Shown piece by piece: positions 6,795 through 52,401 of a stretch of 64,000 nucleotides of DNA. Position 1 is the stretch's first letter. Each line of letters starts with the position of its first letter. The translations under genes and the position numbers were made by a program. Source of the stretch: a virus (lineage: Duplodnaviria; Heunggongvirae; Uroviricota; Caudoviricetes). The notes beneath the pieces are model-generated. The model searched no databases. It was not told the DNA's origin and worked only from the letters and a program-made list of their open reading frames with translations. The stretch lies in the IMG/VR virus record IMGVR_UViG_3300042296_001032. One strand, written 5' to 3'.

Positions 6795-8159
6795 TTATCT
6801 AGTTATAGATACATTTTTTTCAGGGTCATAGAATACTAATTCTTTACTAGTTAAATCTAACTGTAGTTTTTCTATTTTTTCATTTAATTCACCTAATTGT
6901 TGGTCCATATCATCTCTTTTTGTTCTATAGGACGAAATAAAATTTTCAGATTTTTCAAGTTGTTCTACAACCCAATTATATTCATCATCATCACCCTCTT
7001 CTCTACCATATTCAAGCCTTTCTTTATAATTATTTAAAGAACGATAAACCGTATTTACTCTATCTAATTTATTATCTACAATATTTCTTTTATTCCTTAA
7101 TTCTGATAGTTTTAATTTTAACTGTCTAATAGTTTCAAGTGATTCAGAAGAATCCCCCAAAGAATCATAATAATCAGCTAAAGCTTGTTTAGTGTACTTC
7201 TCCATTACCTCTTTTAATTTAGCTAATGCTTCAGTACCCTTTTTTGCTTGGCCTCTACCAGGTCCACCTAAATATTTTAAAACTGTTTTTTCTGGTTTGT
7301 TCTCATCAGCAACATTCCAATAGTCTATCACAGAATTACTGACACTACCTTGGTTAATAAACTCTTCCCTACCCAATTCTCTTGTTTTCTCTAAAGCTCT
7401 ATTATAACCCCTACTTAAACCACCACGAAAAGGACGGTAATGCATTGCTATTTTATAATAGTTTGGTGTGTCCATACTACTTGTTGGAGCTAATCTTCTT
7501 TTATCCATTAAAAAGAATATAGGACCTTGTGTAAAATAATTTTCGTAATAACCAGTATAACCTCTCATAGTAACACACCATCTAGTGTTAGAACCGTATC
7601 TACATGAAGCCTTATGTGTTTTAGGCATCAAAATTAAGAAATCATCATCTTCATAAACCTTATCAACACCAGTCTCTTTTTGTTCTTTTCTTGAAAGTTT
7701 TAATTTTGCCTCATTTGACGCGTCCTCAAGTTCTTTTAAATTACCAAACTGATTTATATCCTTTTTTTCGTATTTTGATGGGTTTTTATGGAAATACTCA
7801 ATATCATCAGTAACTTTTAACAAATCTTCATTACCAAGTGATTGCATTTCCCTAGTTAAATTACGGATGCTATTCCATCTTGAGTCTTCGGCTGTGTCAG
7901 GAACTTGGGTAATGTCCCACCCATGCCAACTTCCAGCACTACTGGCGTTATCTTTAAACCATTTGATGGTTTTTCTTAACATATTTTTGGACAACCAATC
8001 CAAATACTTTTGGTTTCCTGAAGGGTCTATATCAGCTAATCTATCAATTTGGCCCCACATTGGTTGTGGGTATTTAGCTTTAACATCCTCAAGTCTACCT
8101 TCCAATAAAAGGTTTTCAACCTTCTCTAATATAAGTGTTGTAGTTTGTTTAATATTCAT
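6795..8159 (-). CDS. Paralog family A protein (DPSGNQKYLDWL ... ASCRYGSNTRWC motifs), coiled-coil C-terminus
   Basis: Start taken at the internal Met MNIKQTT so that the terminator hairpin at 8184-8207 lies upstream. Shares an N-terminal region of about 250 aa with 11187, 14090 and 16614. Confidence 0.6.
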   Translation of the reverse strand: MNIKQTTTLILEKVENLLLEGRLEDVKAKYPQPMWGQIDRLADIDPSGNQKYLDWLSKNMLRKTIKWFKDNASSAGSWHGWDITQVPDTAEDSRWNSIRNLTREMQSLGNEDLLKVTDDIEYFHKNPSKYEKKDINQFGNLKELEDASNEAKLKLSRKEQKETGVDKVYEDDDFLILMPKTHKASCRYGSNTRWCVTMRGYTGYYENYFTQGPIFFLMDKRRLAPTSSMDTPNYYKIAMHYRPFRGGLSRGYNRALEKTRELGREEFINQGSVSNSVIDYWNVADENKPEKTVLKYLGGPGRGQAKKGTEALAKLKEVMEKYTKQALADYYDSLGDSSESLETIRQLKLKLSELRNKRNIVDNKLDRVNTVYRSLNNYKERLEYGREEGDDDEYNWVVEQLEKSENFISSYRTKRDDMDQQLGELNEKIEKLQLDLTSKELVFYDPEKNVSITR

Positions 8160-8206
8160 AATAATAAATATGCTTAAAAATAAAAAGAGGATTTTAAAAC
8201 CCTCTT

Positions 8207-9688
8207 TTACCACTCAAATTCAATTAAATTTAGTTTTTTAATTGGCAAAAATTTATGTCTTAAAGAATCAGTAGTACCAAATTTGTTATAAGATTTAATC
8301 CATATCCCACTAATCAACTTATTAAAAATACTAACTTTTTTTTCATAATCTAAAACAGCAAGATTATGTTCACTATTTTTTCTAGACCTGAAAATTAATT
8401 TTACCAATAAATCTCTTTTAAAAACACCGTATTTGTCAACGAATTTTTTTGTGATATATTCTATCATTTTAAGTTGTTCTTTAACATTTTTAGTCACAAA
8501 AATTGAACCATCAGAAAATGTTTCTTGTGCTAGATAGTTATTAAAACTATGTATTTGTTCTAAATCTTCTACAATAAAATCACAGTCAAAATAACTTGGA
8601 CTCATATTTAAAATACTAATAAAATCAAAACCACCAAAAACAGTTTCTTTGTAGATATTACTAAGATTATGTTCGTAAGTTATACTTTTTTGATTCTGAA
8701 TATTTTTACCACCAGTAACTGAACTATAAATTTTATTGTAAAATGTTAAAACTTTATTAAAAGCCTCCTCATTTTTCTTTCTAACAAATAAATTCCAAAA
8801 AGAGATTAGTTTAGTGTTATGGTGTATATAAAAATTATTATAATATTTTTCTAACTCAAAACTATTAACCGTGTAATTAAAAACTTCTTGGTTTGAGTTT
8901 ATCTCCACATTAAAATCAAAATGTTCTAAAACAAACTCTCTATTATTCTTCACTTTTTCCATCCATTCAGGACCAATAGAATGAATTTTTTTAATTGTAA
9001 ATGAGTGTTTAATTAAATTCATTTCACAATCAAAGTTTGACATGTCTACCCCCAATTGTACAGATTTGTTTTTAAGTCTTACTGATGTTTGTAGAGGTTG
9101 TGAAACATTTGTAACTTCAATCATATTAGATTCTAAGAAATCTAAAAAATCTTCAGTATAAACGATATTACCGTTAACCCTATCTAAACCAGCCATACAA
9201 CAATTCAAATCAAAAACTGTTAAGAGAGTTTTATAATATTCAGTTTCATTAAAACCTTGAATTGATTTTTTAATAGTACTAACACTAATAGAAACCTTAT
9301 TAATTATACCAAAACGTTCACTACTAAACATTCGCATTGTCTCACCACTAGGACCAACCCAAGTTCTACCATAACCATCCACACCGGCCACATTATCCAA
9401 AGTGGCATGTATAAATAAATTCGGGTCATTGGTGTTGTATGACCAATCGTAACTTAAAACGTTGTCAAAAAAGAATAAGTCAACGTCGTTAATAATTGGT
9501 TCCTCAAACTTTTCTTTGTTTAAAAGATAGTAGATAGTATTTGCTACTGCACCACCTGCCATGAAGTAATGCATGGGGTAATCATCAACCCCAGCCCCAT
9601 CTGAATGGAGTTTGTGATTGATGATTTCCAAGACCTTGTTATAGGTCTTCCCACTGTTCAAAAACTTTATTAATTCTTTTCTATTCAT
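8207..9688 (-). CDS. Putative pol-beta-superfamily nucleotidyltransferase (AGGAV...DVDLFFFD), possibly tRNA nucleotidyltransferase-like
   Basis: 493 aa. N-terminal GG-x-V then D-x-D motif resembles the head domain of CCA-adding / poly(A) polymerase enzymes. Weak. Confidence 0.4.
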   Translation of the reverse strand: MNRKELIKFLNSGKTYNKVLEIINHKLHSDGAGVDDYPMHYFMAGGAVANTIYYLLNKEKFEEPIINDVDLFFFDNVLSYDWSYNTNDPNLFIHATLDNVAGVDGYGRTWVGPSGETMRMFSSERFGIINKVSISVSTIKKSIQGFNETEYYKTLLTVFDLNCCMAGLDRVNGNIVYTEDFLDFLESNMIEVTNVSQPLQTSVRLKNKSVQLGVDMSNFDCEMNLIKHSFTIKKIHSIGPEWMEKVKNNREFVLEHFDFNVEINSNQEVFNYTVNSFELEKYYNNFYIHHNTKLISFWNLFVRKKNEEAFNKVLTFYNKIYSSVTGGKNIQNQKSITYEHNLSNIYKETVFGGFDFISILNMSPSYFDCDFIVEDLEQIHSFNNYLAQETFSDGSIFVTKNVKEQLKMIEYITKKFVDKYGVFKRDLLVKLIFRSRKNSEHNLAVLDYEKKVSIFNKLISGIWIKSYNKFGTTDSLRHKFLPIKKLNLIEFEW

Positions 9689-11164: not shown

Positions 11165-11189
11165 GGTGGGATATCCCACCTTTTTTTTA
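11165..11189. terminator. Terminator hairpin GGTGGGATATCCCACC followed by T8 (bidirectional)
   Basis: Perfect palindromic stem plus T-run. Confidence 0.55.
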
Positions 11190-12014
11190 TTTGATAACAC
11201 CCATTGTTTTTAATACAGAGGTTAATACTTCATTAACCTCATCGTTAGTTAAGTCTACAGACCTTAAAGTTTCTACTGCACGTTGTACAGATACTTTTGA
11301 TTCTGTCATGAATCTTGTTTTTAACTTCAACTTAAGTTGTTGAACAAAGTCGTCTTTAACTTTTTCTGCGGCAAAGTTAAAATTGTCACCATAGATAAGT
11401 TTAATTTGACCTAGATTTAAACCAGCATCTTCATTGTTATAAAATGTAAAACTATTAACATTAACAGTTAAACCTTTATTGCTATTAATAGGAACTCCAA
11501 ACTTTCTATTAATTCTTTTATCTATGATGTAGTATAAGAAACCTTCCCTCATATAGCTATCGTAATAACCTTTTTGAGTTGTACACCACTTAGTACCCAT
11601 ACCATATAGTTTAGAAGAATCGAAACTAAGTGGAACAAGAATTTTCCAATTATCATCTTCAAAAACAACTCTTACATCATTCTTAACCTCAGACCTAGAA
11701 GGTATATTTAATTCTTGTACCTTTAAAAGAAATTCATTGACAGTTTTAAATTTGTTTATATCTCTAAAATCAGTTGGGATTTTGCCATTTAAGTTTCTTT
11801 CAAACCAAATTAAAGATTCTTTAACAGGGTTTTCCAATGATGCTGGAAAATCAGGGTTAAGTCTATACTTACCATTAGTAAGACTAATATATCTAACTTT
11901 GAATAACCATTCAATATATTTTTGGTTAGTGGTTGGGTCCATTCTACCAATTAACGCAACAGACCTTTCAGATACACCGTATTTAGTTTTTAATTCTTCT
12001 AATTTCCTAGACAT
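11187..12014 (-). CDS. Paralog family A protein (short form; DPTTNQKYIEWL, GMGTKWCTTQKGYYDSY)
   Basis: 275 aa. TACAAATATA (-7 box TAnnTTTG on the coding strand) at 12038-12047. Confidence 0.6.
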   Translation of the reverse strand: MSRKLEELKTKYGVSERSVALIGRMDPTTNQKYIEWLFKVRYISLTNGKYRLNPDFPASLENPVKESLIWFERNLNGKIPTDFRDINKFKTVNEFLLKVQELNIPSRSEVKNDVRVVFEDDNWKILVPLSFDSSKLYGMGTKWCTTQKGYYDSYMREGFLYYIIDKRINRKFGVPINSNKGLTVNVNSFTFYNNEDAGLNLGQIKLIYGDNFNFAAEKVKDDFVQQLKLKLKTRFMTESKVSVQRAVETLRSVDLTNDEVNEVLTSVLKTMGVIK

Positions 12015-14089: not shown

Positions 14090-15265
14090 TTAATCAAGAT
14101 TATTTTTTATTTTGTATTCTTCTAAATAATCTCCAATAAATAATTCTGCTTCTTTATAATAATGGTTACTCATTTCAAACCCTACTACTTCATCTAATAT
14201 TTCATTAAATTCTTCTTCATATTCATCAACTATTTCTTCAGTTAAAACATCTGAGATTTCTAAAGGTCTGCCAAACACTCTCTCTATTTCTTCCCCAATG
14301 GGTAGGTCTGGGTTAATATTATACTTCTGTCCTAATATTAATTTAACCGTATAGGTTAATTCTCGTAATAACATATCTCTATCAATATAATAATCATTAA
14401 ATGGTGAATTATTCAAATCTTGTAATAACATATCATATAACTCTTCCTTATCCATACCGAGGTGTAATAACTCTTCCAGATCAAAACCAGGTGAGTCAAA
14501 TAATCCATCCATAACTTCATTATTTATTATAAAATATGAGTGACTTTCAATAAAACTCTTAAAATTTATTAAATCCTCAAATGTTGTAATAAAATCATGT
14601 CCATTATTAGTTAACCAATCATTAATATAGTTATAATTAATACGACCAATTTGTTCTGGTGATGCCGTCATTTTTCTTGAGTTGTGGTACTCCATTAATT
14701 TTTCAATAATTTGTTCGTATTTTGGATGTAGATGAATTATAATTTGAGGATTTGTTTTACAATTATTAACTGCATTACACCAATCGGTTCCACCCCCTGC
14801 TTTAATATGGTAAGAAAATTTATGATTTGGGTCGTCCTGTGGTTTGTTTTTAAAAATCCAAAAGAATTCAGTTCCAGTAGTATTATGTCTATCCCAGTAT
14901 GAACTAGTATCTTTAGCAGTTGTACACCATTTAGAACCCGCACCATATTTACAAGACGCTTCCCACGTATTAGCTGCCACTACCAACAAGTCTTTATCTT
15001 CATAAAACTTAGTAACATCATCAGGGGCTTTAGCCTTTTTAATTTGATTTAAATCTTTTAATAATTCTTCATAAGAATTGTAATTAGCAAAATCTTTTTT
15101 TGGTAGACTTCTTCTATTATCAATTACATCATCCATTATTTTCATGGCAGCCTCAGGGTTACCACTTTTCTTATTAGCCCAAGATTTATAAAGATTTTGT
15201 ATATGTTCAATACCCTCAAAAAGTGAACGTTTAATTTCTTCTAAAATAATTTTTTTAATATTCAT
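14090..15265 (-). CDS. Paralog family A protein (MNIKKIILEE...; ASCKYGAGSKWCTTAKD)
   Basis: Start at the internal Met. Shares the family motifs. Confidence 0.6.
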   Translation of the reverse strand: MNIKKIILEEIKRSLFEGIEHIQNLYKSWANKKSGNPEAAMKIMDDVIDNRRSLPKKDFANYNSYEELLKDLNQIKKAKAPDDVTKFYEDKDLLVVAANTWEASCKYGAGSKWCTTAKDTSSYWDRHNTTGTEFFWIFKNKPQDDPNHKFSYHIKAGGGTDWCNAVNNCKTNPQIIIHLHPKYEQIIEKLMEYHNSRKMTASPEQIGRINYNYINDWLTNNGHDFITTFEDLINFKSFIESHSYFIINNEVMDGLFDSPGFDLEELLHLGMDKEELYDMLLQDLNNSPFNDYYIDRDMLLRELTYTVKLILGQKYNINPDLPIGEEIERVFGRPLEISDVLTEEIVDEYEEEFNEILDEVVGFEMSNHYYKEAELFIGDYLEEYKIKNNLD

Positions 15266-15283
15266 ATTAATAAATATACTGTA

Positions 15284-15313
15284 CAAAAAAAAAGACCCAC
15301 ATTTCTGTGAGTC
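15284..15313 (-). terminator. Intrinsic terminator (GACTCACAGAAATGTGGGTC followed by T9, minus strand)
   Basis: Stem plus long T-run, downstream of the tmRNA region. Confidence 0.5.
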
Positions 15314-15525
15314 TTAATAGGGCCGAATGGATATAATATCTTTCGGATTCCACCACCTTGTTTTTCTAAACAAGGAAACAGTTAGAGTGTAGTGAGTCTG
15401 CAGAACTCTGTGGCACCTACACAAGTTATCCCACTTTTATTTAAATATAATTATTTAATTATCATTTTTCAAGTGTAATAAATTTATTTAAAATAAAAAA
15501 CCCCCATTTTACTGAGGATTAATTT

Positions 15526-15908
15526 TGGTGGAGGTGGAGGGTTTCGAACCCTCGTCCTGCGTTACATTACTAACGTCTTCTACATGCTTATTCCATTTTA
15601 ATCTAAATGGACAAAATATTTGATTTATTATTTACCATTGTAAATCAACAAACAATGGGTATCATTCGATTTTGGGTTCAATGATAATCCACCACAACTA
15701 CGACTTCTGTTGCTAGGTTATATGTCTGCCGACCCCGTAGTAACACCTAATATGATTAGGCAGCTACTGTTGCACCTTCAGTCACAAAGTGACCTACAGT
15801 TGCGTTTGCGAATACGTCGCCGTTTGAAGTTTCAATACGTGTATTAACGTGATAGTATTATTTCACGACATGCTTACCCATTACCAATCGTTAACCAGTC
15901 AAATCCAA
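15526..15908 (-). ncRNA. ssrA: tmRNA (ssrA-like)
   Basis: Minus-strand 5' end GGGGGTGTTTTTGGATTTGACTGG matches the canonical GGGGCUGAUUCUGGAUUCGACGGG. 3' end ...TAAGCATGTAGAAGACG...GGACGAGGGTTCGAAACCCTCCACCTCCACCA matches canonical UAAGCAUGUAG...GGUUCGA..CCACCA. Internal candidate tag frame ends ...EGATVAA then TAA. Confidence 0.7.
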
Positions 15909-15969
15909 AAACACCCCCAATAATTCAAAGAACTCTTACAAATATAAGAATAAATATTAAATAATCAAA

Positions 15970-16201: not shown

Positions 16202-16612
16202 ATGGCTATACCTAAAAGTAAAAAGGACCTTGAGTTAATTCAGGAATGTAGAGTCTTGGTTAGAAAAAACCCACACCTCAAAAAACGTAAATTAAATGCT
16301 ATAAAAGATTTAGAAAAAAGACTTTATTATATAAAAGTATGGGTTATAACTGAATCACAACCACTTTTTAAATTAATAAACTATGACAAACGGTGTTTTA
16401 GGGGACCTTCCTGTTATCATTTGGACCACACGGTACCAATAATTTACGGTTACAATAATAACATCCCACCCGAAAAAATAGGGGGTATTTCTAACCTAAG
16501 ATTTATACCTTCAGAGGATAACATAAGGAAAGGATATAAAATAACTGAAGAATCACATAAAGTTTTAAGGAAATTTAAGCGGAAAGGTGATATTTATAAA
16601 AAAAAGAAATAA
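16202..16612 (+). CDS. HNH endonuclease (HLDHTVPI...N...N motif)
   Basis: 136 aa. His-Asn-Asn spacing typical of HNH nucleases. Confidence 0.5.
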   Translation: MAIPKSKKDLELIQECRVLVRKNPHLKKRKLNAIKDLEKRLYYIKVWVITESQPLFKLINYDKRCFRGPSCYHLDHTVPIIYGYNNNIPPEKIGGISNLRFIPSEDNIRKGYKITEESHKVLRKFKRKGDIYKKKK

Positions 16613-16613
16613 A

Positions 16614-18038
16614 ATGAAATTTAACTTATCTCAAATTTTAGAATCTACTATATTATTAGAAGGTAGAAGAGAAGATGTAATTAAAAAATATGGTGAAGAC
16701 CATACCGAACTTGTTGATATGTTTGTTGAGGTTGACCCATCAGGAAATAACAAATATCTTGACTGGATGATTAAAACCGCTTTAGGTAAAAATCAAGATG
16801 ACAGTATACCAATGGCTGACCAAATAGCTAAAGCTGTAGTGGACTATCATAGACTATTACCTAGAATTAAACAAAAAGATATTAATACTTATAAATCTTT
16901 ATCTGAATTAAATGATGTTGTTGCTCAAGCTTTAAAAGATGAAAAAGACAAAAGAATTTCTAAAGAAGCGACAAAAATTTATGACAAAGATGGTGTTGTG
17001 ATTTACGTACCATTCACAGTTGAAGCTTCATGTAAATATGGTGCTGGGTCTAAGTGGTGTATAGCTGGTAAAAGTGGTGATAATAATTTAAATACTTATT
17101 TTGACTCCTATAGTGAACACTCAAATTTCTACTTTTTTATTAACAATAATTTAGTTAATAGTGATAGTACACATTACAAATACGCTTTACAATGGAGATT
17201 TGATGGTAATGGTAGAGATTTAACTTGGTGGGATGCACGAGATGATTCACACAGTAACGCACCTTATTGGGTGACTCCTGATATGATGGCGGTTGTGGAA
17301 GCTTTTAATCCTTCACACACTAAGAAAAAATTAGCTATAAAAATAGCTTCTTTCCTTGATGACCCTAAATTTGATGAGTACGCTAAATTTAAAGATTATA
17401 TTACACCTGAACAAAAAACTAACGTGATTAGTAAAATTATTAAAAAAGGTGGACTTAACTCTAAAGCTTTTAGTATTTTAGCGTCTGACCTTAATGATAA
17501 ACAAAAAATGGACTTTATCACTAACTACGTCAAAGGTACAGTTAACGCTAATGATTATAAACAAATGCAAGAACATTTAACAGAGTTACAAAAAATGACT
17601 TTAGTTAAATTCAATCCATCTATTCTTAATAATATTGATGTTATGAATGACTTGAATAAGGAATTGACAGATGACCAAAAATATGAATTATCTAAAGTAG
17701 TTGACGCAAAACAAATAAACAATACAGATAGTAAAGTATTGTTTAGAAAATGGTCTATGAGTGCTGAAGAAAGAGCAAAACACGGTCAAACTTCTTTCTA
17801 TGTATTCTTATCTAATCCAGAAGACTTAGTTGAGAAGATAGTTAAAGTTGACCCATTAGACCCAGAATCATATAGAACAATCAACATGATGAAACTAAGA
17901 AAACAAGTACAACCTGATACTTCAATGTATGGTATTAAAACTGAATCTGGTTTCCTTGATGATTACATTGGTAAATCTACATCAGATATACCTACTTCTG
18001 TTTTAGAAACTATAAAAGAAAAATCAACAAAAATTTAA
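16614..18038 (+). CDS. Paralog family A protein (MKFNLSQILES...; DPSGNNKYLDWM; ASCKYGAGSKWCIAGK)
   Basis: Start at the internal Met to avoid overlap with the HNH gene. Terminator follows. Confidence 0.6.
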   Translation: MKFNLSQILESTILLEGRREDVIKKYGEDHTELVDMFVEVDPSGNNKYLDWMIKTALGKNQDDSIPMADQIAKAVVDYHRLLPRIKQKDINTYKSLSELNDVVAQALKDEKDKRISKEATKIYDKDGVVIYVPFTVEASCKYGAGSKWCIAGKSGDNNLNTYFDSYSEHSNFYFFINNNLVNSDSTHYKYALQWRFDGNGRDLTWWDARDDSHSNAPYWVTPDMMAVVEAFNPSHTKKKLAIKIASFLDDPKFDEYAKFKDYITPEQKTNVISKIIKKGGLNSKAFSILASDLNDKQKMDFITNYVKGTVNANDYKQMQEHLTELQKMTLVKFNPSILNNIDVMNDLNKELTDDQKYELSKVVDAKQINNTDSKVLFRKWSMSAEERAKHGQTSFYVFLSNPEDLVEKIVKVDPLDPESYRTINMMKLRKQVQPDTSMYGIKTESGFLDDYIGKSTSDIPTSVLETIKEKSTKI

Positions 18039-23617: not shown

Positions 23618-24001
23618 ATATATGGTATATAAGGGAGGATTCGAACCTCCACGAACTTATTCAAAACTAGGTTTCTTTCAGTCCATACATTTTACAAGAG
23701 TCTAAGGATTTAATTCTATCATATTATTAAATCTATCTATATAACTTGTTACAGTTGGTTTTTAAAGAGTACCGTAACCAAACCTCTTGACCAGTCTGAT
23801 TATAGACCACCAAGATTAGCTAAATCTAAGGTCTTTTAGGCTTTTACAGAACTCCCAATCTAACCTTACTCTCTTTTCAAACGTAAGCGTCTACCAATTC
23901 CGCCACTTATATGTATTATTTCAAAGAACTTTATCACATAGCTGTAGATTTACTCTACTATTTACTCACTAGATAATGATAGTGATACTATGTGATTAGT
24001 G

Positions 24002-24110
24002 TACACAAAGAAGGATTCGAACCTCCAAAACCTACTTTTATCGACCCGAAGGTAGATTATTTTCGGTCAGAGTTGTTACACCCCGTGTTTACCAATTTCA
24101 CCACTTGTGT
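24002..24110 (-). tRNA. Atypical, long (109 nt) tRNA-like gene (acceptor ACACAAG/TTTGTGT, normal D- and T-arms, 36 nt extra internal hairpin)
   Basis: Perfect 7 bp acceptor and canonical D-arm (GTGAAATTGGTAAACAC) and T-arm (GGAGGTTCGAATCCTTC). No standard anticodon arm closes. The extra piece could be an intron, or the gene may be a pseudogene. Confidence 0.35.
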
Positions 24111-28279: not shown

Positions 28280-28360
28280 TAGTCAGGACAGGATTTGAAC
28301 CTACGAGAGTCTTTTCGCCCCACGGGTCTCATTTAGGCGTCACCATTTCGCCACCTGACT
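28280..28360 (-). tRNA. Atypical tRNA-like gene (acceptor AGTCAGG/CCTGACT, D-arm GGCGAAATGGTGACGCC, T-arm GTAGGTTCAAATCCTGT); anticodon arm not resolved
   Basis: Perfect acceptor, D and T arms, but the 31 nt between the D and T arms do not form a canonical anticodon arm. Confidence 0.3.
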
Positions 28361-28614: not shown

Positions 28615-28631
28615 AATTTTTTATTTTTTTG

Positions 28632-28737
28632 TAGTCAGGACAGGACTTGAACCTGTATGTGTAACTTTCTTGGCCCTTCCCCAATGGCACACTATCCACT
28701 CGTTAATTTAGCGTCTAACCAATTCCGCCACCTGACT
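28632..28737 (-). tRNA. Atypical tRNA-like gene with about 30 nt extra sequence (acceptor AGTCAGG/CCTGACT, D-arm GCGGAATTGGTTAGACGC, T-arm CAGGTTCAAGTCCTG)
   Basis: Shares its acceptor with the 28280-28360 locus. 106 nt is too long for a standard tRNA. Possibly intron-containing. Confidence 0.3.
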
Positions 28738-33714: not shown

Positions 33715-34290
33715 TTACATTAAAAATTTTAAGATTTTTTCTTTAATCCCTGATTGTTTAATTCCCTGTGTTGATTTTGGTGTTAGGACAAAGTTAGTTA
33801 ACCCACTATTAGGATTACCAGAGATTGACCCAAACTTTTCTGACATATCTAAATCATCAACTGCAACCCAATGAGTTACTTCAGGATGTTGCGATAACCA
33901 ATGTTTGATTTCTGCTTGTCTCTCATACTCAAGTTTGGCGTAGTTTCTCAATCTTTGCCATTCTCTTGGGTAGATATCTTTAAACATGTCAGTAACCCCA
34001 ATAGGTCTTTTGATAATTCCTTGACTTTGATAGTAGTCCCCAAGTTCCTCAAGAGAAGCTTGGTATCTCCAATCAGAAGATACCACAATCTCAGCTCCTG
34101 TTTGTTCAAGGATGGTATTTAAAACTTTAATTGCTTTCACATCAAAGTTATCTAATCTACAATCAATTGGTCTATCATCAAATTTAACATCAGGATTTTT
34201 AGAATGATATTTTTTAAATTTTTTCATTCTACTACCCCAATTATCTGCCAAACAGATTACACCATCATTATCAAGAAAAATTACTTTCAT
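33715..34290 (-). CDS. HAD-superfamily hydrolase-like protein (MKVIFLDNDGVI)
   Basis: DxDGV motif I and later acidic DD motifs. Start moved to the internal Met. Confidence 0.45.
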   Translation of the reverse strand: MKVIFLDNDGVICLADNWGSRMKKFKKYHSKNPDVKFDDRPIDCRLDNFDVKAIKVLNTILEQTGAEIVVSSDWRYQASLEELGDYYQSQGIIKRPIGVTDMFKDIYPREWQRLRNYAKLEYERQAEIKHWLSQHPEVTHWVAVDDLDMSEKFGSISGNPNSGLTNFVLTPKSTQGIKQSGIKEKILKFLM

Positions 34291-34291
34291 A

Positions 34292-34681
34292 TTAACTTTT
34301 AATTTCTGTTTCACAATTATCACGCCAATCACTATGACCAACGTTCAAAGGCATACACTTTTCATCAGATTCAAAAATTAACATTAATTCAATTTCGTCA
34401 TCGTCCAAATGAAATTTGAAGTCTTTACCTTTCAAATATTCTATCTTGTCCCTTCCGTTTGTGAAGGTAATATTTTTTTCATCAATACCACATTCTTGAG
34501 CAACATTAAATAGATTTTTATTTTGGTCCAATATCCACCACCAACCAGCTTCTTTGGCTGCTTTATCACTATGTCTACTAGTAACAATGTGGACATCTAA
34601 ACCCCTACTCACCAAATCTTTGGCGTATTCTTGGACACTCTTAAGAGAAAGCGTACCATCAAAATCAAATGAAACTTTCAT
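34292..34681 (-). CDS. HAD-superfamily phosphatase (MKVSFDFDGTLS)
   Basis: DxDGT motif I, T/S motif II, C-terminal DD motif. Confidence 0.5.
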   Translation of the reverse strand: MKVSFDFDGTLSLKSVQEYAKDLVSRGLDVHIVTSRHSDKAAKEAGWWWILDQNKNLFNVAQECGIDEKNITFTNGRDKIEYLKGKDFKFHLDDDEIELMLIFESDEKCMPLNVGHSDWRDNCETEIKS

Positions 34682-34801
34682 TATTTTAATTTTAATCCTA
34701 TTAATAATCTAACCCTTCTCTTGAATCTAATTCTAAGATAACGGTCAACAACTTTTTTAATATCTTTTTTTTGTTGTTTTGTTAATTCTGGTCCCTCAGT
34801 A

Positions 34802-35263
34802 TCATACATAATACTCAATTTTAACTCTTATACAATCTTGTGATTTACCTTCATTCATTAAAAAGTTATTGATATAACCCATGATATTAGCTGAACCTAT
34901 TGGGTTAGCTGAATGAACCACAACTTTAGGGAAATAAAAATTTTTATCCCTTTTTTTCTCAGACCTACTCATGTTGATTCTATGTTCATTCAAAGAATAA
35001 AACAAATTAACTAACCATTTAACCGCGTCGTAACCAGTTTTTTCTTCTATGTTCTCATAATCTAATTTGTAGTTAGGTGAAACATTGTTATAATACTCAT
35101 TCATAGCAGTATCACCCAAGTCATGGTCTAATGAAATTAATTCGATGTTATTCAAACCAACTTTATTTATTAAGTCTACAAATTCATAAAAACTCCTAAC
35201 AACCAACCAATCTTTGTCATTAGGAGTTCTTATGTCATCCAAATATATTTTTACTTTATTCAT
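34802..35263 (-). CDS. Hypothetical protein
   Basis: 153 aa ORF. Confidence 0.5.
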   Translation of the reverse strand: MNKVKIYLDDIRTPNDKDWLVVRSFYEFVDLINKVGLNNIELISLDHDLGDTAMNEYYNNVSPNYKLDYENIEEKTGYDAVKWLVNLFYSLNEHRINMSRSEKKRDKNFYFPKVVVHSANPIGSANIMGYINNFLMNEGKSQDCIRVKIEYYV

Positions 35264-35280
35264 ACCACAAAGATAACCTA

Positions 35281-35976
35281 TTAATCAACAAATTCCAAAT
35301 GATTTGTGTTTTTATCCCATAAAACATTCACAGGTTTATTGCGGAACTCATATCGTCCATTTAACACAGCTGCGTTAATGTAGTGAGTATTTCCATCAAA
35401 CACATAACCATAACCTTCGTGGATGTGTCCAAATACGTGAATTTTTGGTTTGATTACTTCAACTCGTTTCATTAGTTCTTCACAACCAACATTTTGATTT
35501 GGGTATTTTACGTAATCCAATTTGCCAAATGGTGGTCCGTGAGTGATAAGAATGTCAGTACCAACTGTTATCATATCCCACTTCTCTTTTAAAGCTTGTC
35601 CTCTTGGTAAGTTAAATGCCCAATTATGAAATTCAGGTTGCCAAGGAGTACCCCAAACTTTAACCATATCGTCATAATCCTCATCACCAACCAATAAAAG
35701 TTCGTCTTGTAAATATTCAACTGTTTTATAACCAGTTAACAAACCTTTAGTTTCATTAGGTTGGTCTTGGAAACCAAAGTCGTGATTACCTGCTATGAAA
35801 ATTTTGTGGTCATAGTTATCAATTTTATCAAACCACTTAAGAAAATTTTCAATTTCAGTTTTATAACCTCTACTAGTGATATCACCAGCACAGATTAACA
35901 TATCACCACCAGGAAGAAAACCGTTAAGTTTCTCGTGTTTGGTGTGTGTGTCACTAATAAAGGTTAATTTTTTCAT
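35281..35976 (-). CDS. Calcineurin-like metallophosphoesterase
   Basis: Motifs ISDTHTKH, CAGDITSRG, AGNHD, GHIHEG. Confidence 0.7.
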   Translation of the reverse strand: MKKLTFISDTHTKHEKLNGFLPGGDMLICAGDITSRGYKTEIENFLKWFDKIDNYDHKIFIAGNHDFGFQDQPNETKGLLTGYKTVEYLQDELLLVGDEDYDDMVKVWGTPWQPEFHNWAFNLPRGQALKEKWDMITVGTDILITHGPPFGKLDYVKYPNQNVGCEELMKRVEVIKPKIHVFGHIHEGYGYVFDGNTHYINAAVLNGRYEFRNKPVNVLWDKNTNHLEFVD

Positions 35977-38498: not shown

Positions 38499-39902
38499 TT
38501 AATTTTTATTTAATTTAACCGTTATTTTTGTACCAGTGTTAATTTTTTCACACATCATACTAAAACCATGTTCTTCTAAAATTGTTTTGGTTATACCTAA
38601 ACCTAAACCAACTTCGGAATTACTCTTTTTATTTAAATATTCACCTGTTGTTCTTTCGAACTCTTTTTGTGAAAATCCAACACCATTATCTTCAATAATT
38701 AAATCATTATTATCCATGTAAATTTTAATTTCTTTATTTTCACTACTATTATATTTTAACCCATTTTTAATTAAATTATCAATAGCGTTCCAAAAAAGAG
38801 TTTCATTTACATTTAGTGTAACTAATTCACTAATTTCTACCTGATTTTTATATGATGTATTTGTTAAGTATTTTAATAAAGATTCTTTTATATCAACCAT
38901 ATTTCTATCTAAAACTACAGTATTTTTCACAAGGTTTGTAAACTCATAAACACTTTTATATACTTTTTGTGTGTGTGCCAAACCATCTTTTATCATTTTA
39001 ATTGAGGGTGTAATTTTTAAGTTATTCATTTCCTCAATTGAAATTCTTTTTTCTAATGACGATAACCCTCTTGGTATATAGGTGTTAATACCTGAATGCA
39101 TGTCGTGTCTAATTATTCTAGCCGCATATTCAAGGTAAGTGTTTTTCTTGTTAATGTCTTTTAATTGGTTTTCGATTTCTATGTCTTGGACTTTAATTGT
39201 TTTTCTTTGTAATAAAACAATAATACCTAAAACCAAAACAGAAAGAACAATTGTGGACCACCATAAATATTTTTTTAAGGTTTTTTTATCGGTAACTAAA
39301 TCATCATTTTTAACACTAAGATTAATGATATTTTTTTCTTTACCTAATATTTGTATAGTACTTGTTTTAGAACTGATAACTTCTTGACTAGCTTTATTTT
39401 TTAATAATTCTTTTTTTTCTTTTAATAGTTTTTGGAGTTTTGACTCTATCTCATCAGCAATTTTTTTTATATCTTTTTTAGATAAATTATCGTATGATTT
39501 TGGTAGGTCATCTAAAAATTTTTGGTCGGCTTTAATACTAGATAATTCTGAGTCACTTAACTCTTGTACGGGTTCTTCTTTAGGTGTGTCAAAAACTTTT
39601 TCAGGTTTTAAATCAACAACATCAATATAGGTACTAACCTTATCTAAATACCAATCTGACTCATCATACATACCTTTATTATAAAAAGAGATACCAATTT
39701 CTTGACATAAGCTTGATTGGTATTTAGTTAATTTTTTATTTGGTTCGTAATTTAATTTTTTAATTAAACTAGTTATACGACTATCACTAGGACATGTAGG
39801 TTCAATCTCTGTTTTTTTGGGGTTATTATCAGTCTGTGAATTTACATTTAAAGAAGTAAAAAAACCCAAAAACATTATTGTTATTAAAATATTTTTTATC
39901 AT
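38499..39902 (-). CDS. Sensor histidine kinase (signal peptide, extracytoplasmic domain, TM, divergent HisKA, HATPase_c)
   Basis: N-box NAIDNLIKNGLKYN, G1 DNGVGF, G2 GLGLGI. H-box is divergent (RIIRHDMHSGINTY instead of SHELRTPL). Confidence 0.7.
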   Translation of the reverse strand: MIKNILITIMFLGFFTSLNVNSQTDNNPKKTEIEPTCPSDSRITSLIKKLNYEPNKKLTKYQSSLCQEIGISFYNKGMYDESDWYLDKVSTYIDVVDLKPEKVFDTPKEEPVQELSDSELSSIKADQKFLDDLPKSYDNLSKKDIKKIADEIESKLQKLLKEKKELLKNKASQEVISSKTSTIQILGKEKNIINLSVKNDDLVTDKKTLKKYLWWSTIVLSVLVLGIIVLLQRKTIKVQDIEIENQLKDINKKNTYLEYAARIIRHDMHSGINTYIPRGLSSLEKRISIEEMNNLKITPSIKMIKDGLAHTQKVYKSVYEFTNLVKNTVVLDRNMVDIKESLLKYLTNTSYKNQVEISELVTLNVNETLFWNAIDNLIKNGLKYNSSENKEIKIYMDNNDLIIEDNGVGFSQKEFERTTGEYLNKKSNSEVGLGLGITKTILEEHGFSMMCEKINTGTKITVKLNKN

Positions 39903-40513
39903 AATTTTGGGGTTAATTTATATGGGAATAATACTATTCTTGGTTTATATTTTGGGGATATATTTAATTCCCAACCAATCTCAGGACTTTCTTCTTTAAG
40001 TAGATTTATTTGTTTCCAATAATATATATTAGTAACATCACCTCTTGTAATTAAACTATAATTACCACTTCCTCTATGCGATACTAACATATACAAACTT
40101 AAATCAATAACTTTAACTGTTGAGTCTTGCCAAGAATAATATAGGTACCCATTATCTATCGACGACGATAAAATCCAATTCTCTAACGTATCTATTTTAG
40201 AAATTAAACTATCGTAATAATTGTTTTGGACGGTTAACAAACTATCCAATTGGTTAATAACACTATCTTTTATTTTAATATCGTTATTTAATAACGTGTT
40301 AGTATCATTAACTAATTTTATTTCTGTTTTATATTTTTGTATTCTAATTTTTTGATTCTCAATTAGTGAATTAATATCATCAGATTGTTTTTTTGTAAGA
40401 ATAACCACAGAATCACCTTTTAATTGTGTCTGGATAGGGTAGGTTGGTTGTGAATACACTATACTTACCATACTTATGAAAAATATGGTTAATAAATTTT
40501 TTAGTTTTATCAT
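39899..40513 (-). CDS. Secreted protein (signal peptide MIKLKNLLTIFFISMVSIVYSQ) inside the two-component operon
   Basis: ATGA overlaps on both sides. Confidence 0.5.
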   Translation of the reverse strand: MIKLKNLLTIFFISMVSIVYSQPTYPIQTQLKGDSVVILTKKQSDDINSLIENQKIRIQKYKTEIKLVNDTNTLLNNDIKIKDSVINQLDSLLTVQNNYYDSLISKIDTLENWILSSSIDNGYLYYSWQDSTVKVIDLSLYMLVSHRGSGNYSLITRGDVTNIYYWKQINLLKEESPEIGWELNISPKYKPRIVLFPYKLTPKL

Positions 40514-42435
40514 TTTAGTTCAATTTTCATTTTTGTCCCTATGTCATTTTTCTCACACGAAATATTAAATTTATGTTCTTCTAAAATAGCTACACATATA
40601 TTAAGCCCTAGACCAGTTCCAGATTCTTTTTGGCCTTCTTTTCTGGTATATGGTTGGGATAAATGAATAAAATCTTTTTGTGTAATCCCTCTACCGTTGT
40701 CTTGTATAATTAGATTACCATCTTCCATATATATTTTAACAAATTTTGTATTACTATCATTATACTTTAACCCATTACGAATTAAATTATCGACTGCGGT
40801 ACAGAATAATGGTTCATTAACTTCTATCGTTGGTAACTCATCAATAATAACTTGACTACTATATGCTGTCGCTGATAAATAATCCTCAAGTATATCTTTT
40901 AAATTACATTCCGTTTTATTTAAAACAACATCTTTCTTTACAAGATTTGTAAATTCGTAAACCCCTTTATATACTTTTTGGGAATGTTTTAAACCCTCTT
41001 TAATCATTTTAATTGGGGCCTCAATTTTTAAAGTTTTAATATCTTCGGGGGTTAATCTTCTTTCTAAAGAACTTAATCCTCTTGGCATATAAGTATTAAT
41101 ACCTGAATGCATATCGTGTCTTAATATTTTAGCCGCATGTTCTAGGTAAGTGTTTTTCTTTTCAATTTCTTTCTTTTGTTCGTAGGAATTGGTGATATCT
41201 GTCGCGATTTTCATAACACGATAAACCTTACCATCTAAACCGATAACTGGATTGTATGTTGCTTGTAGATACACTAAAGAACCGTCTTTTTTAATTCTAG
41301 TAATTTCACCGGTAAATAACACCCCTTCATTTAATTTTTCCCAAAAAAGAGAGTATTCTTCACTTTTTGAGTATTCCTCATCTATAAAAATTCTATGGTG
41401 TTTTCCAACTACTTCATCCTGTAAAGAATATCCCATAGTTTCTAAAAACAAATTATTAGCAAAAATGATGTTTCCTTCTAAATCAAACTCAATAACTGCG
41501 TTAGATTTATTTATCGCGTTCATTCTATTGCGAATTTCAACTTCCTTTTTTTTAAGTTCTGTAACATCTTGTCTTATTGAAGCAAATCCATCCAATTTAC
41601 CATCGGTATCAAAAATTGCTCTAATAAAAGTATCAACGTAATATAATTCTCCTGATTTTCCTTTATTGGTAACAACGTCATTCCATACATCACCTTTCAT
41701 TACCGTTTCATACATTTTACCCCAATATCCATCAGGTTGTAATCCCGAATTAACAATAACATGGTCTTTACCAACTACCTCATCCAAAGACCACCCAGAA
41801 ACATCCTCAAATTTTTTATTAACATATGTAATTTTACCTCTTTTATCAGCAGTAGATATAATTGTCGATACGTCAATAAATTTTTCTGTTTCTTCTATTT
41901 TTTTATTTAAATTGTTTGTTTCTTTTATTGAATAAGCAAAAGTGTATAAAGAAGATAATAATTGAGTAAAATCAACCTCAAAAGAATCCCATTCACGTAA
42001 TGTAAAACTTTCAATACATATAACACCAATAGTTTCCCCAAAATAAATGATAGGTACATCTAACATAGATTTAATACCCAGTGGTTTTAAATAACCATCA
42101 GTAAAACAAGATGTTGCTGGATGTTTTTCAGCATCATTAGCTATTATTATTGGGTTCTTTATTAATTCTTCGAAATACGGTCCAAAATCCTTTTCAAAGA
42201 TTTCTAAACCATCATACCACATATTTTCAGATTTAACATATAATTGTTGGCAAACAATAGATGTTTTATTTTTGTTGTATAACCATATAGAACATCTATC
42301 AACATTAATTGAGTCTACAACTTCTTTAGTTAGAATTTTAGAACCTTCTACTATATCCCCTTTATAAAAAAGAGGGTTATGTGTTTGTGAAATTAAAGTT
42401 TTATTTAATTTATTAATGTAAAAATTTTTATCCAT
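40510..42435 (-). CDS. Cytoplasmic sensor histidine kinase with GAF and tandem PAS domains, same divergent H-box (KILRHDMHSGINTY)
   Basis: N-box NLIRNGLKYN, G1 DNGRGI, G2 GTGLGLNI. PAS-like KRGKITYVNKKFEDVSGWSLDEVVGK repeats. Confidence 0.7.
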   Translation of the reverse strand: MDKNFYINKLNKTLISQTHNPLFYKGDIVEGSKILTKEVVDSINVDRCSIWLYNKNKTSIVCQQLYVKSENMWYDGLEIFEKDFGPYFEELIKNPIIIANDAEKHPATSCFTDGYLKPLGIKSMLDVPIIYFGETIGVICIESFTLREWDSFEVDFTQLLSSLYTFAYSIKETNNLNKKIEETEKFIDVSTIISTADKRGKITYVNKKFEDVSGWSLDEVVGKDHVIVNSGLQPDGYWGKMYETVMKGDVWNDVVTNKGKSGELYYVDTFIRAIFDTDGKLDGFASIRQDVTELKKKEVEIRNRMNAINKSNAVIEFDLEGNIIFANNLFLETMGYSLQDEVVGKHHRIFIDEEYSKSEEYSLFWEKLNEGVLFTGEITRIKKDGSLVYLQATYNPVIGLDGKVYRVMKIATDITNSYEQKKEIEKKNTYLEHAAKILRHDMHSGINTYMPRGLSSLERRLTPEDIKTLKIEAPIKMIKEGLKHSQKVYKGVYEFTNLVKKDVVLNKTECNLKDILEDYLSATAYSSQVIIDELPTIEVNEPLFCTAVDNLIRNGLKYNDSNTKFVKIYMEDGNLIIQDNGRGITQKDFIHLSQPYTRKEGQKESGTGLGLNICVAILEEHKFNISCEKNDIGTKMKIELK

Positions 42436-43352: not shown

Positions 43353-45560
43353 ATGAACTTAATTAAATACCTTTTTATACTAATTTCTTTTGTGACCTAT
43401 TCACAATACTGTCCTTATTTAGGACCAGACCAAATACTACCTTGTGGTGTTGGGTCAACAACATTAACTGCCGATTTTAGTCAATGTGGACCAGGTTCAA
43501 ATCCAAATCAAACAACAAACTACGGTGTTACAAATATTCCTTATGTAACACAAACAAATACTGGTACACAATTATTTATGTCGGATGATTCACAACAAGG
43601 TCCTTTTAATATTGGGTTTACATTTTGTTTCTTTGGACAAACATACAATCAATTTTGGGTTGGTTCTAACGGTTGGATTTCTTTTTCACCGGCACAACCA
43701 ACAACATTTACTTCAGCAACAATACCTAATGGTGCGGGTACAGTACCAAAAAATTGTGTCATGGGTCCTTGGCAAGATTGGCACCCAGGTTTAGGTGGGC
43801 AAATTAGGTACCAAGTTCAAGGTACAGCACCTTGTAGAAAATTAGTTGTTAGTTGGGTTGGTGTCCCTATGTTTTCATGTACAAATTTACTGGGGACATT
43901 TCATACAGTGATTTATGAATCAACAAACGTAATAGAAAATTATATTCAATCAAAACCAAACTGTCTAGCTTGGGCGGGAGGTACCGCGGTTCAAGGATTA
44001 CATAATACCACAGGAACCGTGGCGATAACTGTACCAGGTAGGAATTCCACACAATGGACAGCAAATAATGATGCGTACCGATACACTCCAAGTGGACCAA
44101 CTGTTTTACCTGTACCAACATGGTATATTGTAGGTAACCCAAATCCAATTGGGGTTGGTGCGTCCATTACGGTTACACCACCTGTACAAGGAGCTAATTA
44201 TACTTGTCAACTAGTATATCCTTCTTGTAATGTTGGATGGAATACTTGTAATAGTATTGCCGGTCCAGGACCTGATACGGTGTTTGTACAACCTGGTCCA
44301 CCTAACTTACCACAACCTACAATTACTTTTATTGACCCAACTTGTTATAACTATTGTGATGGTAGTATTAATGTAATCCCTAACGGAACCAATGGTGTCA
44401 CTACTATTTCTTGGAATACTCTACAAACAACTTTTAACCCCACTAACCTTTGTTATGGTAATTATAGTTTTTTAATTACAGACGGTATAGGTTGTACCGT
44501 AACAGGTAATGCAACACTCACTAACCCAGCACAAATAATAATGACACCTATTAGTGGTCCTGATACGGTATGTTATTTATCAACATCAGAAAGTTATAGT
44601 GTACCTTCTATGGGTGTTGGTTACAACTACATATGGTCTACAACACCACAAATAATAAATGGTCAAGGTACTGATAATATAACAACGGATTGGTCATTAG
44701 AACCTAGTGGTTTATATCAAGACTCTATAAGTGTTTATTCTACTAGTCCTATTGGTTGTAATAGTGATACCTCTTACTTCACTACATTTATTTTAAACAT
44801 AAACCCTACAATAGACCCTATTGGTCCTTTTTGTGATTATGATGGTTGTGTAGATTTAGTGGGTTCACCTTTAAATGGTACTTTCTTAGTCAATGGGGTT
44901 CAGACTGATGAATTTTGCCCACAACAAGGTATCATAACAAACAATGATGTAACTTATACATATACACAAAGTAATTGCCCATTTGATACAACAATCAACG
45001 TTATTGTAAACCCACAACCAATCATAACATCTGTAACACCTTCATATGAATTTAACCAACTTTGTGAAGGTGATAGTATTTTTAGAATCTATACAGCTTA
45101 TTCATCTTTATCTGGGTTGTTTGATTGGGTTGTTGAAGGTGATACAATACAAGATAATAGTTTACCTTATGTTTGGAATAATGTTGGTTTTTATACAATT
45201 AGCGTTTCCCAAACGGTTAATGGTTGTGTTTCTAATGAAGAACAAGCTAATATAGCAATACAAGAATGTCCACAAGAATTAATTTATATACCTAATACAT
45301 TTACCCCCGATGGTGATGCTTTCAACAATATTTGGTTACCAATATTTACTGATGGGTTTGATGTCTATGATTATAATTTATTGGTATTCAATAGATGGGG
45401 TGAAACAATTTTTGAATCATACAATCATACCGTTGGTTGGGATGGTACTTATAATAATAAAATGTGTTTTGATGGGATTTATGTTTGGAGAATAATGTAT
45501 GGGTCTGAGTATGATGACTCACGTAAAATGATAACAGGACATTTAACAATTATGCGATGA
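43353..45560 (+). CDS. Large secreted Cys/Thr/Asn-rich protein with a gliding-motility-type C-terminal domain (CHU_C / T9SS type B CTD)
   Basis: Signal peptide MNLIKYLFILISFVTYSQ. C-terminus IYIPNTFTPDGDAFNNIW...VFNRWGETIFES...WDGTYNNK matches the PNAFTPNGDGxND gliding CTD. Confidence 0.65.
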   Translation: MNLIKYLFILISFVTYSQYCPYLGPDQILPCGVGSTTLTADFSQCGPGSNPNQTTNYGVTNIPYVTQTNTGTQLFMSDDSQQGPFNIGFTFCFFGQTYNQFWVGSNGWISFSPAQPTTFTSATIPNGAGTVPKNCVMGPWQDWHPGLGGQIRYQVQGTAPCRKLVVSWVGVPMFSCTNLLGTFHTVIYESTNVIENYIQSKPNCLAWAGGTAVQGLHNTTGTVAITVPGRNSTQWTANNDAYRYTPSGPTVLPVPTWYIVGNPNPIGVGASITVTPPVQGANYTCQLVYPSCNVGWNTCNSIAGPGPDTVFVQPGPPNLPQPTITFIDPTCYNYCDGSINVIPNGTNGVTTISWNTLQTTFNPTNLCYGNYSFLITDGIGCTVTGNATLTNPAQIIMTPISGPDTVCYLSTSESYSVPSMGVGYNYIWSTTPQIINGQGTDNITTDWSLEPSGLYQDSISVYSTSPIGCNSDTSYFTTFILNINPTIDPIGPFCDYDGCVDLVGSPLNGTFLVNGVQTDEFCPQQGIITNNDVTYTYTQSNCPFDTTINVIVNPQPIITSVTPSYEFNQLCEGDSIFRIYTAYSSLSGLFDWVVEGDTIQDNSLPYVWNNVGFYTISVSQTVNGCVSNEEQANIAIQECPQELIYIPNTFTPDGDAFNNIWLPIFTDGFDVYDYNLLVFNRWGETIFESYNHTVGWDGTYNNKMCFDGIYVWRIMYGSEYDDSRKMITGHLTIMR

Positions 45561-45797: not shown

Positions 45798-45802
45798 AAT
45801 AG

Positions 45803-45874
45803 TATGGATGGGTGGAGTTGAACCACCGAGAAGACTGTATAAGAGTCTCATGTTAACCGTTACATCACATCCAC
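45803..45874 (-). tRNA. tRNA-Ile (TAT)
   Basis: GTGGATG-TG-ATGT..ACAT-G-AGACT-CTTATAC-AGTCT-TCTC-GGTGG-TTCAACT-CCACC-CATCCAT-A. Confidence 0.55.
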
Positions 45875-52400: not shown

Positions 52401-52401
52401 T

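Follow-up and report, generated by a model that had tools for sequence, protein, structure and literature searches.

The viral record IMGVR_UViG_3300042296_001032 (Caudoviricetes) raises the question of whether a gene for transfer-messenger RNA (tmRNA, ssrA) found on phage DNA is a working part of the phage or a passenger from a host chromosome, and, if it works, which peptide it adds to the products of stalled ribosomes. We analysed a stretch of 64,000 nucleotides (nt) of this record, referred to here as the window. We conclude, with a probability of about 0.8, that it carries a functional one-piece phage tmRNA that would use the SmpB and alanyl-tRNA synthetase of the host, free stalled ribosomes and add a lineage-specific tag.

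ARAGORN and the Rfam covariance model RF00023 both call the tmRNA on the minus strand of the window (Table 1). A first-pass annotation had recognized it from its 5′ end (GGGGGTGTTTTTGGATTTGACTGG), its 3′ end (TAAGCATGTAG...GGACGAGGGTTCGAAACCCTCCACCTCCACCA) and an internal frame (...ANATVGHFVTEGATVAA-TAA), all of which do lie on that strand, and had named a covariance-model scan as the check. RF00023 matches the region over the full length of the model (1–374 of 374) with 99.3 bits against a gathering score of 47 (E = 1.5 × 10−37), which together with the ARAGORN call places the identity far beyond chance. The gene was correctly ended at 15526; its start had been put at 15908, which cut off the first 10 nt (GGGGGTGTTT) of a gene that begins at 15918. 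The minus strand opens GGGGGTGTTTTTGGATTTGAC... and closes ...GGACGAGGGTTCGAAACCCTCCACCTCCACCA, and we found a tRNA-Ala-like domain with a 7-bp acceptor stem containing G3:U70, a UUCGA-type T loop and an encoded ACCA; the G3:U wobble is the alanine identity element. The gene is not of the two-piece (permuted) form: the parts stand in the standard 5′-to-3′ order and the match to the standard model is full length.

Resume codon and tag

The resume codon, left open by the first-pass annotation, was mapped by comparison to GGC at tmRNA nt 98–100, which is invariant in a 30-sequence alignment of the family. The Rfam alignment places this GGC on the consensus resume codon, and it falls on the host-type resume GGC when aligned with seven Bacteroidales tmRNAs (tags GENNYALAA and GETNYALAA), which come from provirus-edge contigs and may not be those of the host of the phage. 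Comparison with the Bacteroidota tag GENNYALAA, proposed earlier, was apt, and the Bacteroidales tags have 9 amino acids (aa). The invariant A at −4 (A94) corresponds to A86 of Escherichia coli, a base important for frame selection. ARAGORN instead starts the tag four codons downstream, at GCA (nt 110), and reports ANATVGHFVTEGATVAA. We rejected this codon for GGC, which lies 11 nt after pseudoknot 1 (PK1), whereas GCA would lie 23 nt after it; more generally, ARAGORN recovered only 15 tmRNAs among 102 related loci, several with implausible tags such as EKKQNGYGSPKELSPFIDRCEKSNILGC.

From GGC, the frame is exactly 21 codons long in 86 of 87 family members. Selection on it was measured along a minimum spanning tree of 35 distinct 66-nt frames, in which single-base codon changes were synonymous in 44 cases and nonsynonymous in 26 (27% synonymous expected, P = 3.8 × 10−10) and changes at codon positions 1, 2 and 3 numbered 54, 29 and 85. 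The synonymous fraction was 0.62 in the tag frame compared with 0.21 and 0.08 in the other two, stop-rich frames. Within the subgroup of the window (five viral and eight metagenome contigs), all differences are synonymous except D2N, and they include changes in codons 2–4, upstream of the start chosen by ARAGORN. Because GGC is invariant and aligned with known resume codons, because the frame is fixed at 21 codons and because the synonymous differences of the subgroup include some in codons 2–4, we read the tag as GDVFANATVGHFVTEGATVAA, 21 aa, or 22 added residues when the alanine carried by the RNA is counted. The modal length of tmRNA tags is 10 aa (PMC11915505), so the earlier description of the tag as unusually long was right; the 17 aa quoted for it were too few.

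Most of the family has G[DN]VL..K.E.LGL.R.SEVTVA in place of the tag of the window. The two C-terminal ends, ...ATVAA in the window and ...EVTVA in most of the family, resemble the canonical ...ALAA without matching it. This raises a possible, although clearly less probable, interpretation in which trans-translation is real and the tag itself is the point: a lineage-specific signal that is read by its own adaptor or protease, of phage or host origin, or that escapes host ssrA degradation, so that proteins bearing it would be handled differently from those that carry the tag of the host tmRNA. The conservation and purifying selection that extend over all 21 residues and not just the C terminus, the length fixed in 86 of 87 members and the VTVA rather than LAA ending of most of the family are in keeping with such a role, as is a length about twice the modal 10 aa (PMC11915505) in a peptide unlike the 9-aa GENNYALAA and GETNYALAA (bioRxiv 10.1101/2025.03.18.644028). 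Set against this, we found no phage protease or adaptor in the window, long tags also occur in ordinary bacteria, and the tag of the window itself ends in AA after a hydrophobic residue, much as the functional tag of Caulobacter ends in AVAA. We therefore only tentatively suggest that the 21-residue tag directs nascent chains of the host or the phage to an adaptor or protease of their own, or shields them from host ssrA proteolysis; if it did either, the phage would decide what becomes of stalled translation products, beyond recycling ribosomes.

Structure, transcription signals and relatives

We built a structural model by hand (P1, P2a–c, the stems of PK1 and PK2, the last hairpin and the T arm) and tested it on the 30-sequence alignment. 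In these relatives, 94.8% of the cells of the model are paired, compared with 32–50% when the partners are slid by 1–3 columns; changes on both sides (compensatory) occur at 29 of the 57 pairs, and none of 500 shuffles reached the observed values. The covariation supports the tRNA-like domain, P2, PK1, PK2 and PK4. P2 (helices 2–4) is 83–100% paired with compensatory change at 13 of 20 pairs, its P2b register in the window copy having been worked out by hand, and PK1 (nt 52–86) is the best-scoring H-type pseudoknot of its segment, with compensatory changes in both stems across the family. The region of P5 (nt 140–182) folds at −11.9 kcal/mol (RNAfold), and relatives L207, L120 and L128 (L numbers denote related loci) differ in its loop only. 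The first stem of PK2 is invariant and the second shows a double compensatory change in L153. PK3 and PK4 were tested on a second alignment, of members with the same downstream modules as the window. The number of downstream pseudoknot modules varies across the family. In PK4, pairing reaches 100% in one stem and 88% in the other, and the compensatory changes include UUAAUUU/AAAUUAA in L128. Two RNAalifold proposals were rejected: a GUC/GAC hairpin inside PK2 conflicts with the compensation seen in L153 for the alternative stem of PK2, and a long-range CUGUAGC/GCAACAG helix is broken in the subgroup of the window. A permissive enumeration of helices was too noisy and was left unused.

Table 1 Features of the tmRNA locus and of related loci (window coordinates unless a locus is named)
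Feature	Position	Strand	Details and basis
Whole tmRNA (ssrA) gene, CCA end encoded	15526–15918	−	393 nt; ARAGORN, RF00023, identity to L120
Bacteroidota-type promoter	15939–15969	−	TTTG (15966–15969), 19-nt spacer, TATATTTG (15939–15946); read from sequence
Intrinsic terminator-like hairpin and T run	15489–15520	−	8-bp stem then TTTTATTTTA; 6 nt past CCA end
Tag frame	15756–15821	−	Resume codon GGC (15819–15821), 21 codons = GDVFANATVGHFVTEGATVAA, stop TAA (15756–15758); conservation and selection
Invariant A at −4 of resume codon (A94)	15825	−	30-sequence alignment; also A in Bacteroidales tmRNAs
Acceptor stem, 5′ strand	15912–15918	−	GGGGGUG; pairs with 15530–15536; invariant in 30/30 relatives including G3:U
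Acceptor stem, 3′ strand	15526–15536	−	CACCUCC, then discriminator A and CCA; sequence and alignment
T arm	15537–15553	−	GAGGG-UUCGAAA-CCCUC; 5/5 pairs with compensatory changes, 100% of cells paired
P2 helix, 5′ strand	15868–15898	−	tmRNA nt 21–51; pairs with 15557–15587; P2a, P2b, P2c covary
P2 helix, 3′ strand	15557–15587	−	tmRNA nt 332–362; contains UAAGCAUGUAG; RF00023 and covariation
PK1	15833–15867	−	Stems CGUGA/UCACG (nt 52–56/67–71) and UAAUAC/GUAUUG (nt 59–64/81–86); H-type search and covariation
P5 hairpin, encloses stop codon	15739–15768	−	GUAGCU-G-CCUAAU-CAU-AUUAGG-UGUUAC; RNAfold
PK2	15701–15735	−	GGGU/ACCU and GAC/GUC; covariation helices 7 and 8
PK3, predicted	15660–15693	−	GGU/ACC and UAUCAUU/AAUGAUA; H-type search; module variable in family
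PK4	15620–15661	−	CCAUUG/CAAUGG and UUGAUUUA/UAAAUCAA; H-type search and covariation
Last hairpin before P2 3′ strand	15592–15611	−	UCCAUUU/AAAUGGA; RNAfold; 4/5 pairs with compensatory changes
Intron-bearing tmRNA locus	L120 8587–9201	+	RF00028
GOLLD RNA genes	L219 9693–10107; L170 7078–7485; L221 4411–4817; L137 5677–6083		RF02032

The checks proposed in the first-pass annotation thus all came out in its favour: beside the full-length covariance-model match, PK1 and the tRNA-like domain are present and covary in relatives, and the tag frame is under coding selection. These features also bear on whether the RNA might be a decoy that soaks up host SmpB or blocks host trans-translation, as suggested for the tmRNA of mycobacteriophage DS6A that consists of a tRNA-like domain (TLD) only. 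There is precedent in the TLD-only molecules of phages and in a similar molecule that acts as an inhibitor of tmRNA in E. coli (PMC4131195, PMC11915505); the lack of an SmpB gene among those found in the window would also suit a decoy. Yet the RNA retains its entire mRNA-like domain, PK1 and the pseudoknots further downstream, and a decoy would have no need of a tag frame under clear coding selection, which makes this explanation very unlikely.

The tmRNA gene has its own transcription signals. The promoter box TATATTTG ends 20 nt before the mature 5′ end of the tmRNA, and TTTG / TAnnTTTG is the promoter consensus of Bacteroidota (Bacteroides, Flavobacterium). TAnnTTTG occurs upstream of 50 of 58 distinct family genes compared with 7.5% of 90-nt windows drawn at random from these loci, and the full motif upstream of 24 of the 58 compared with a background of 0.6%. 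A hairpin and T run similar to that of the window lie 3′ of the tmRNA gene in relatives. Because the promoter motif and the terminator flank it, the gene is predicted to be an independent unit for a polymerase of Bacteroidota type. Many family members share a conserved box, GTTCTTTGA (15921–15935 in the window), which is located between the gene and its −7 promoter box, 8–16 nt upstream of the mature 5′ end; it might belong to the leader, guide processing or add to the promoter as a second element.

To place the gene among known sequences, we searched for its exact first 21 nt, which are found on at least 93 IMG/VR viral contigs, five of them 220–304 kb in length. Among 185,579 bacterial and archaeal species genomes (one per species), the same 21-mer gave a single, unrelated match: a 9-kb contig (L222) of a Doudnabacteria metagenome-assembled genome, which diverges completely past these 21 nt and is not a family member. 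Because the 21-mer occurs on IMG/VR contigs and its sole match in a species genome is unrelated, the family appears to be restricted to phages as far as the searched collections show. Neither the tag nor the family 21-mer is in the supplements of the tmRNA database paper (PMC11915505; the supplements only, not the database itself). The closest relative, L120 (IMG/VR contig 3300016484_000638), has a tmRNA that is 97.7% identical to that of the window after removal of an intron, and the other family members are 48–69% identical. The gene adjoining the tmRNA in the window (14090–15286) has a 65%-identical homologue on L120 in the same position relative to the tmRNA. Four paralogous open reading frames (ORFs) surround the tmRNA (6795–8213, 11187–12014, 14090–15286 and 16587–18038), all of phrog_17056, and the one just downstream of the tmRNA is that whose position is kept in L120.

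Among the 50,697 phage records of INPHARED, the tmRNA had no match even with sensitive blastn, 25 kb of the window had none by megablast and the neighbouring protein had none by tblastn, and thus no cultured relative was found. A TROVE-like protein of the window matches 711 INPHARED phages, which is too broad for placement. The exact 32-nt 3′ end had no match in IMG/VR. A degenerate 3′-end pattern was useless for defining the family; the matches listed included more than 118 provirus-edge contigs, mainly with gammaproteobacterial tmRNAs tagged ANDENYALAA.

Such host tmRNAs on provirus edges, and the many mobile elements that integrate into ssrA, are the grounds for regarding the gene as a passenger without a function for the phage, either taken up not long ago as a host ssrA or left over from an integration site in one. 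This is largely refuted by the locus itself. The full-length gene, served by a promoter and a terminator of its own, sits inside the contig, flanked by phage-type genes and not at a prophage–chromosome junction. Its family, which occupies at least 93 viral contigs, has preserved structure and frame while its members diverged from one another to about 50% identity, its 5′ end is absent from the bacterial species genomes, and it is only 36–40% identical to the Bacteroidales tmRNAs. Both a decoy and a passenger are disfavoured because coding selection and the depth of the family conflict with them, and we consider the passenger explanation highly improbable.

At least ten family members (L120, L128, L141, L137, L170, L173, L177, L206, L219 and L221) carry a 220–224-nt group I intron (RF00028, 89–98 bits) after the UU of the T-loop, and further carriers are L258, L262 and L264; the carriers include three metagenome contigs of the subgroup of the window. 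The last base of the intron is the canonical G in six of ten copies (L137, L170, L173, L177, L206 and L221) and A in L120, L128, L141 and L219. The allele of the window and L207 are intron-less: the T-loop of the window, UUCGAAA, is uninterrupted, and there is no copy of the intron elsewhere in its 64 kb. Group I introns at subsite 3 of the T-loop have been reported in tmRNA only from the class Bacteroidia (PMC11915505). The intron of the relatives lies at the same place, subsite 3 as that paper defines it, whereas the gene of the window differs from these intron forms in being intron-less. The coexistence of intron-bearing and intron-less alleles that are 97.7% identical constitutes a natural experiment.

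Two other features vary among relatives. The terminal CCA is not encoded in L136, L137, L141, L170 and L177 (ends ...CCACCC, CCACCG, CCACGC and CCACAC), the tmRNAs of which would need a CCA-adding enzyme, whereas the window copy encodes CCA. In four contigs of the major group, GOLLD RNA genes (RF02032, 288–328 bits) lie about 1 kb from the tmRNA; an Rfam scan found none in the window.

Genomic setting and host

The window has a G+C content of about 30%, and most of its ORFs have no Pfam match or match PHROG families only. Among the recognizable genes are Phage_L5_gp82, HNH endonucleases, a non-specific endonuclease, Fpg/Nei, RNase HII and DnaJ, and the exact DnaJ protein recurs on contigs of 0.2–1 Mb. 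ARAGORN finds 24 tRNAs, all on the minus strand, within 24 kb in phage-style arrays, and these cover every amino acid except His. Genes of RNA-repair type are also present: HAD_SAK_2, cREC_REC (a cyclic-phosphate-processing receiver domain), Metallophos (a calcineurin-like phosphoesterase) and a TROVE/DUF2828 protein (with DUF7788; the 'RNA-binding protein' of phrog_850). They lie at 33715–35976 and 53899–55341, beside tRNA arrays. The viral setting assumed by the first-pass annotation is supported by these phage-type genes and tRNAs, by the DnaJ on large contigs, by relatives from IMG/VR and by a 5′ end that is missing from bacterial species genomes.

Several lines indicate the host. A CHU_C type IX secretion domain, a marker of Bacteroidota, is found in a 735-aa protein that also has a PKD-like domain; it is encoded in the same stretches (38499–42435 and 43353–45560) as two histidine-kinase-like proteins, one with a GAF and two PAS domains, and all three are unusual cargo for a phage-type contig. 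This protein, the promoter type and the Bacteroidota-like features of the tmRNA together point to a Bacteroidota host. Two adjacent genes of the Mom family (51606–53133; E = 1 × 10−54 and 1 × 10−22) suggest modification of DNA bases.

The tRNA complement has further peculiarities. Alongside tRNA-Ile(GAU), the window encodes at 45802–45874 a tRNA-Ile whose anticodon, UAU, allows direct reading of AUA; this fits an AT-rich phage that supplies its own decoding set. Four tRNA-like genes on the minus strand have normal acceptor, D and T arms and greatly enlarged middles (23623–23912, 24001–24110, 28280–28360 and 28631–28737; 290, 109, 81 and 106 nt). Three of them score only 34–35 bits with the Rfam tRNA model and the 290-nt gene has no Rfam match. 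In its intron mode, ARAGORN leaves 28280–28360 uncalled and reads the other three as tRNA-Pro ('intron' of 194 nt), tRNA-Val (19 nt) and tRNA-His (13 nt); His is the sole amino acid missing from the ordinary tRNA set. None of the four matches the tmRNA intron of the relatives.

Proposed working and known phage tmRNAs

For a functional phage tmRNA, we envisage the following sequence of events. The gene would be transcribed by the host RNA polymerase from its own Bacteroidota-type promoter, ending at the intrinsic terminator, and a leader of about 14 nt would be trimmed by RNase P. The host alanyl-tRNA synthetase would charge the RNA through the G3:U pair, and EF-Tu and SmpB of the host, the latter presumed because none was found in the window, would bring it to ribosomes that have stalled on mRNAs that are broken or lack a stop codon. 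Translation would restart at GGC (15819–15821), add Ala and GDVFANATVGHFVTEGATVAA, and stop at TAA, so that the ribosome is freed and the incomplete protein marked. The hydrophobic ...TVAA end most likely serves as a C-terminal degron. For the phage, the gene probably helps to sustain translation during infection, when mRNA damage and stalling rise; damage to mRNA and tRNA may come from the host shut-off of the phage itself or from host defences. Such upkeep of ribosomes would fit the rest of the window, which encodes a non-specific nuclease and genes of RNA-repair type beside its near-complete set of tRNAs. The use of host SmpB and alanyl-tRNA synthetase, the breakdown of tagged proteins and a benefit to the phage are steps that we infer, and hijacked ribosome rescue and a phage-specific degron, both suggested by the first-pass annotation, keep that same standing.

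Several considerations weigh against this interpretation. Expression, charging and tagging are predicted from the sequence, and PK3 is a prediction only. No match to SmpB was found in the 64-kb window by tblastn with E. coli SmpB as the query, and the host SmpB would have to accept a tRNA-like domain that differs from those of Bacteroidales tmRNAs. Degradation of the ClpXP type is not assured, as most of the family ends in ...VTVA and not ...LAA, and the tag was compared with those of Bacteroidales as stand-ins for the host. Moreover, no capsid or terminase genes were seen in the 64-kb window; its designation as phage rests on gene content and on relatives that are IMG/VR viral contigs, and a giant plasmid-like element is a remote possibility. 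If the window were bacterial or a giant plasmid, the tmRNA would be the replicon's own, and sets of translation genes have been described on large plasmids (PMC7162821). This has only a slight chance of being correct: the ORFs mostly lack Pfam matches or belong to phage families (Phage_L5_gp82, Mom, HNH and several PHROGs), there are no ribosomal or other housekeeping genes in the window, all related loci come from IMG/VR and the 24 tRNAs in 24 kb form arrays in the style of phages.

The functional phage tmRNA that we favour resembles the ssrA of Bacteroidales in architecture and length (about 395 nt), in the motifs GGAUUUGAC, GUAAGCAUG, AUAAGCAUGUAGAA and GGACGAGGGUUC, in a resume GGC at nearly the same place (nt 96–98) with A at −4, and in a tag that starts with Gly and an acidic residue. 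It differs in overall sequence (36–40% identity), in a tag of 21 rather than 9 aa that ends in TVAA rather than LAA, in its location on a viral contig and in the 5′ sequence of its acceptor and linker, GGGGGUGUUUUUGG, which is in none of the 185,579 species genomes bar the one unrelated match. In Bacteroides, the native tag GETNYALAA acts as a strong degron (bioRxiv 10.1101/2025.03.18.644028).

That a virus should encode a tmRNA is less remarkable in itself than the first-pass annotation implied, as phage tmRNAs are documented (PMC4131195, PMC9004378, PMC7162821). They are known from eight Bxz1-like mycobacteriophages and Bacillus phage G, with the TLD-only RNA of DS6A in addition (PMC4131195), from 402 of 18,146 phage genomes (PMC9004378) and from huge metagenome phages, some of which also have SmpB (PMC7162821). 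Like the window, the Bxz1 group, phage G, the huge phages and the pelagiphage/Melnitz group carry the tmRNA on a large phage with many tRNAs and translation genes (PMC4131195, PMC7162821, PMC9004378). The window differs from these described cases in the phylum of its host, as indicated by Bacteroidota signals, and in its family-specific 21-aa tag. Its tmRNA is one-piece whereas the pelagiphage/Melnitz form is two-piece, and no SmpB was found in it whereas some huge phages encode one. With the DS6A RNA it has in common a phage-encoded tmRNA tRNA-like domain, but it keeps the full mRNA-like domain and pseudoknots and its tag is under coding selection.

A widespread family, found on at least 93 viral contigs in addition to metagenome matches and in genomes of up to about 300 kb, thus joins the short list of phage tmRNAs. 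Now that the resume codon and the 21-aa tag are fixed, the tag, which is under selection at the protein level though different from host tags, is open to direct testing. A tmRNA combined with a near-complete tRNA set and genes of RNA-repair type is in line with the idea that very large phages come with a kit for the maintenance of translation, and the understanding of how tmRNA works is unchanged. Compared with known systems, the tmRNA of the window is a complete and well-supported further case of a phage tmRNA and not a new category; particular to it are the host phylum, the phage-restricted family and a fixed 21-aa tag that is unlike host tags.

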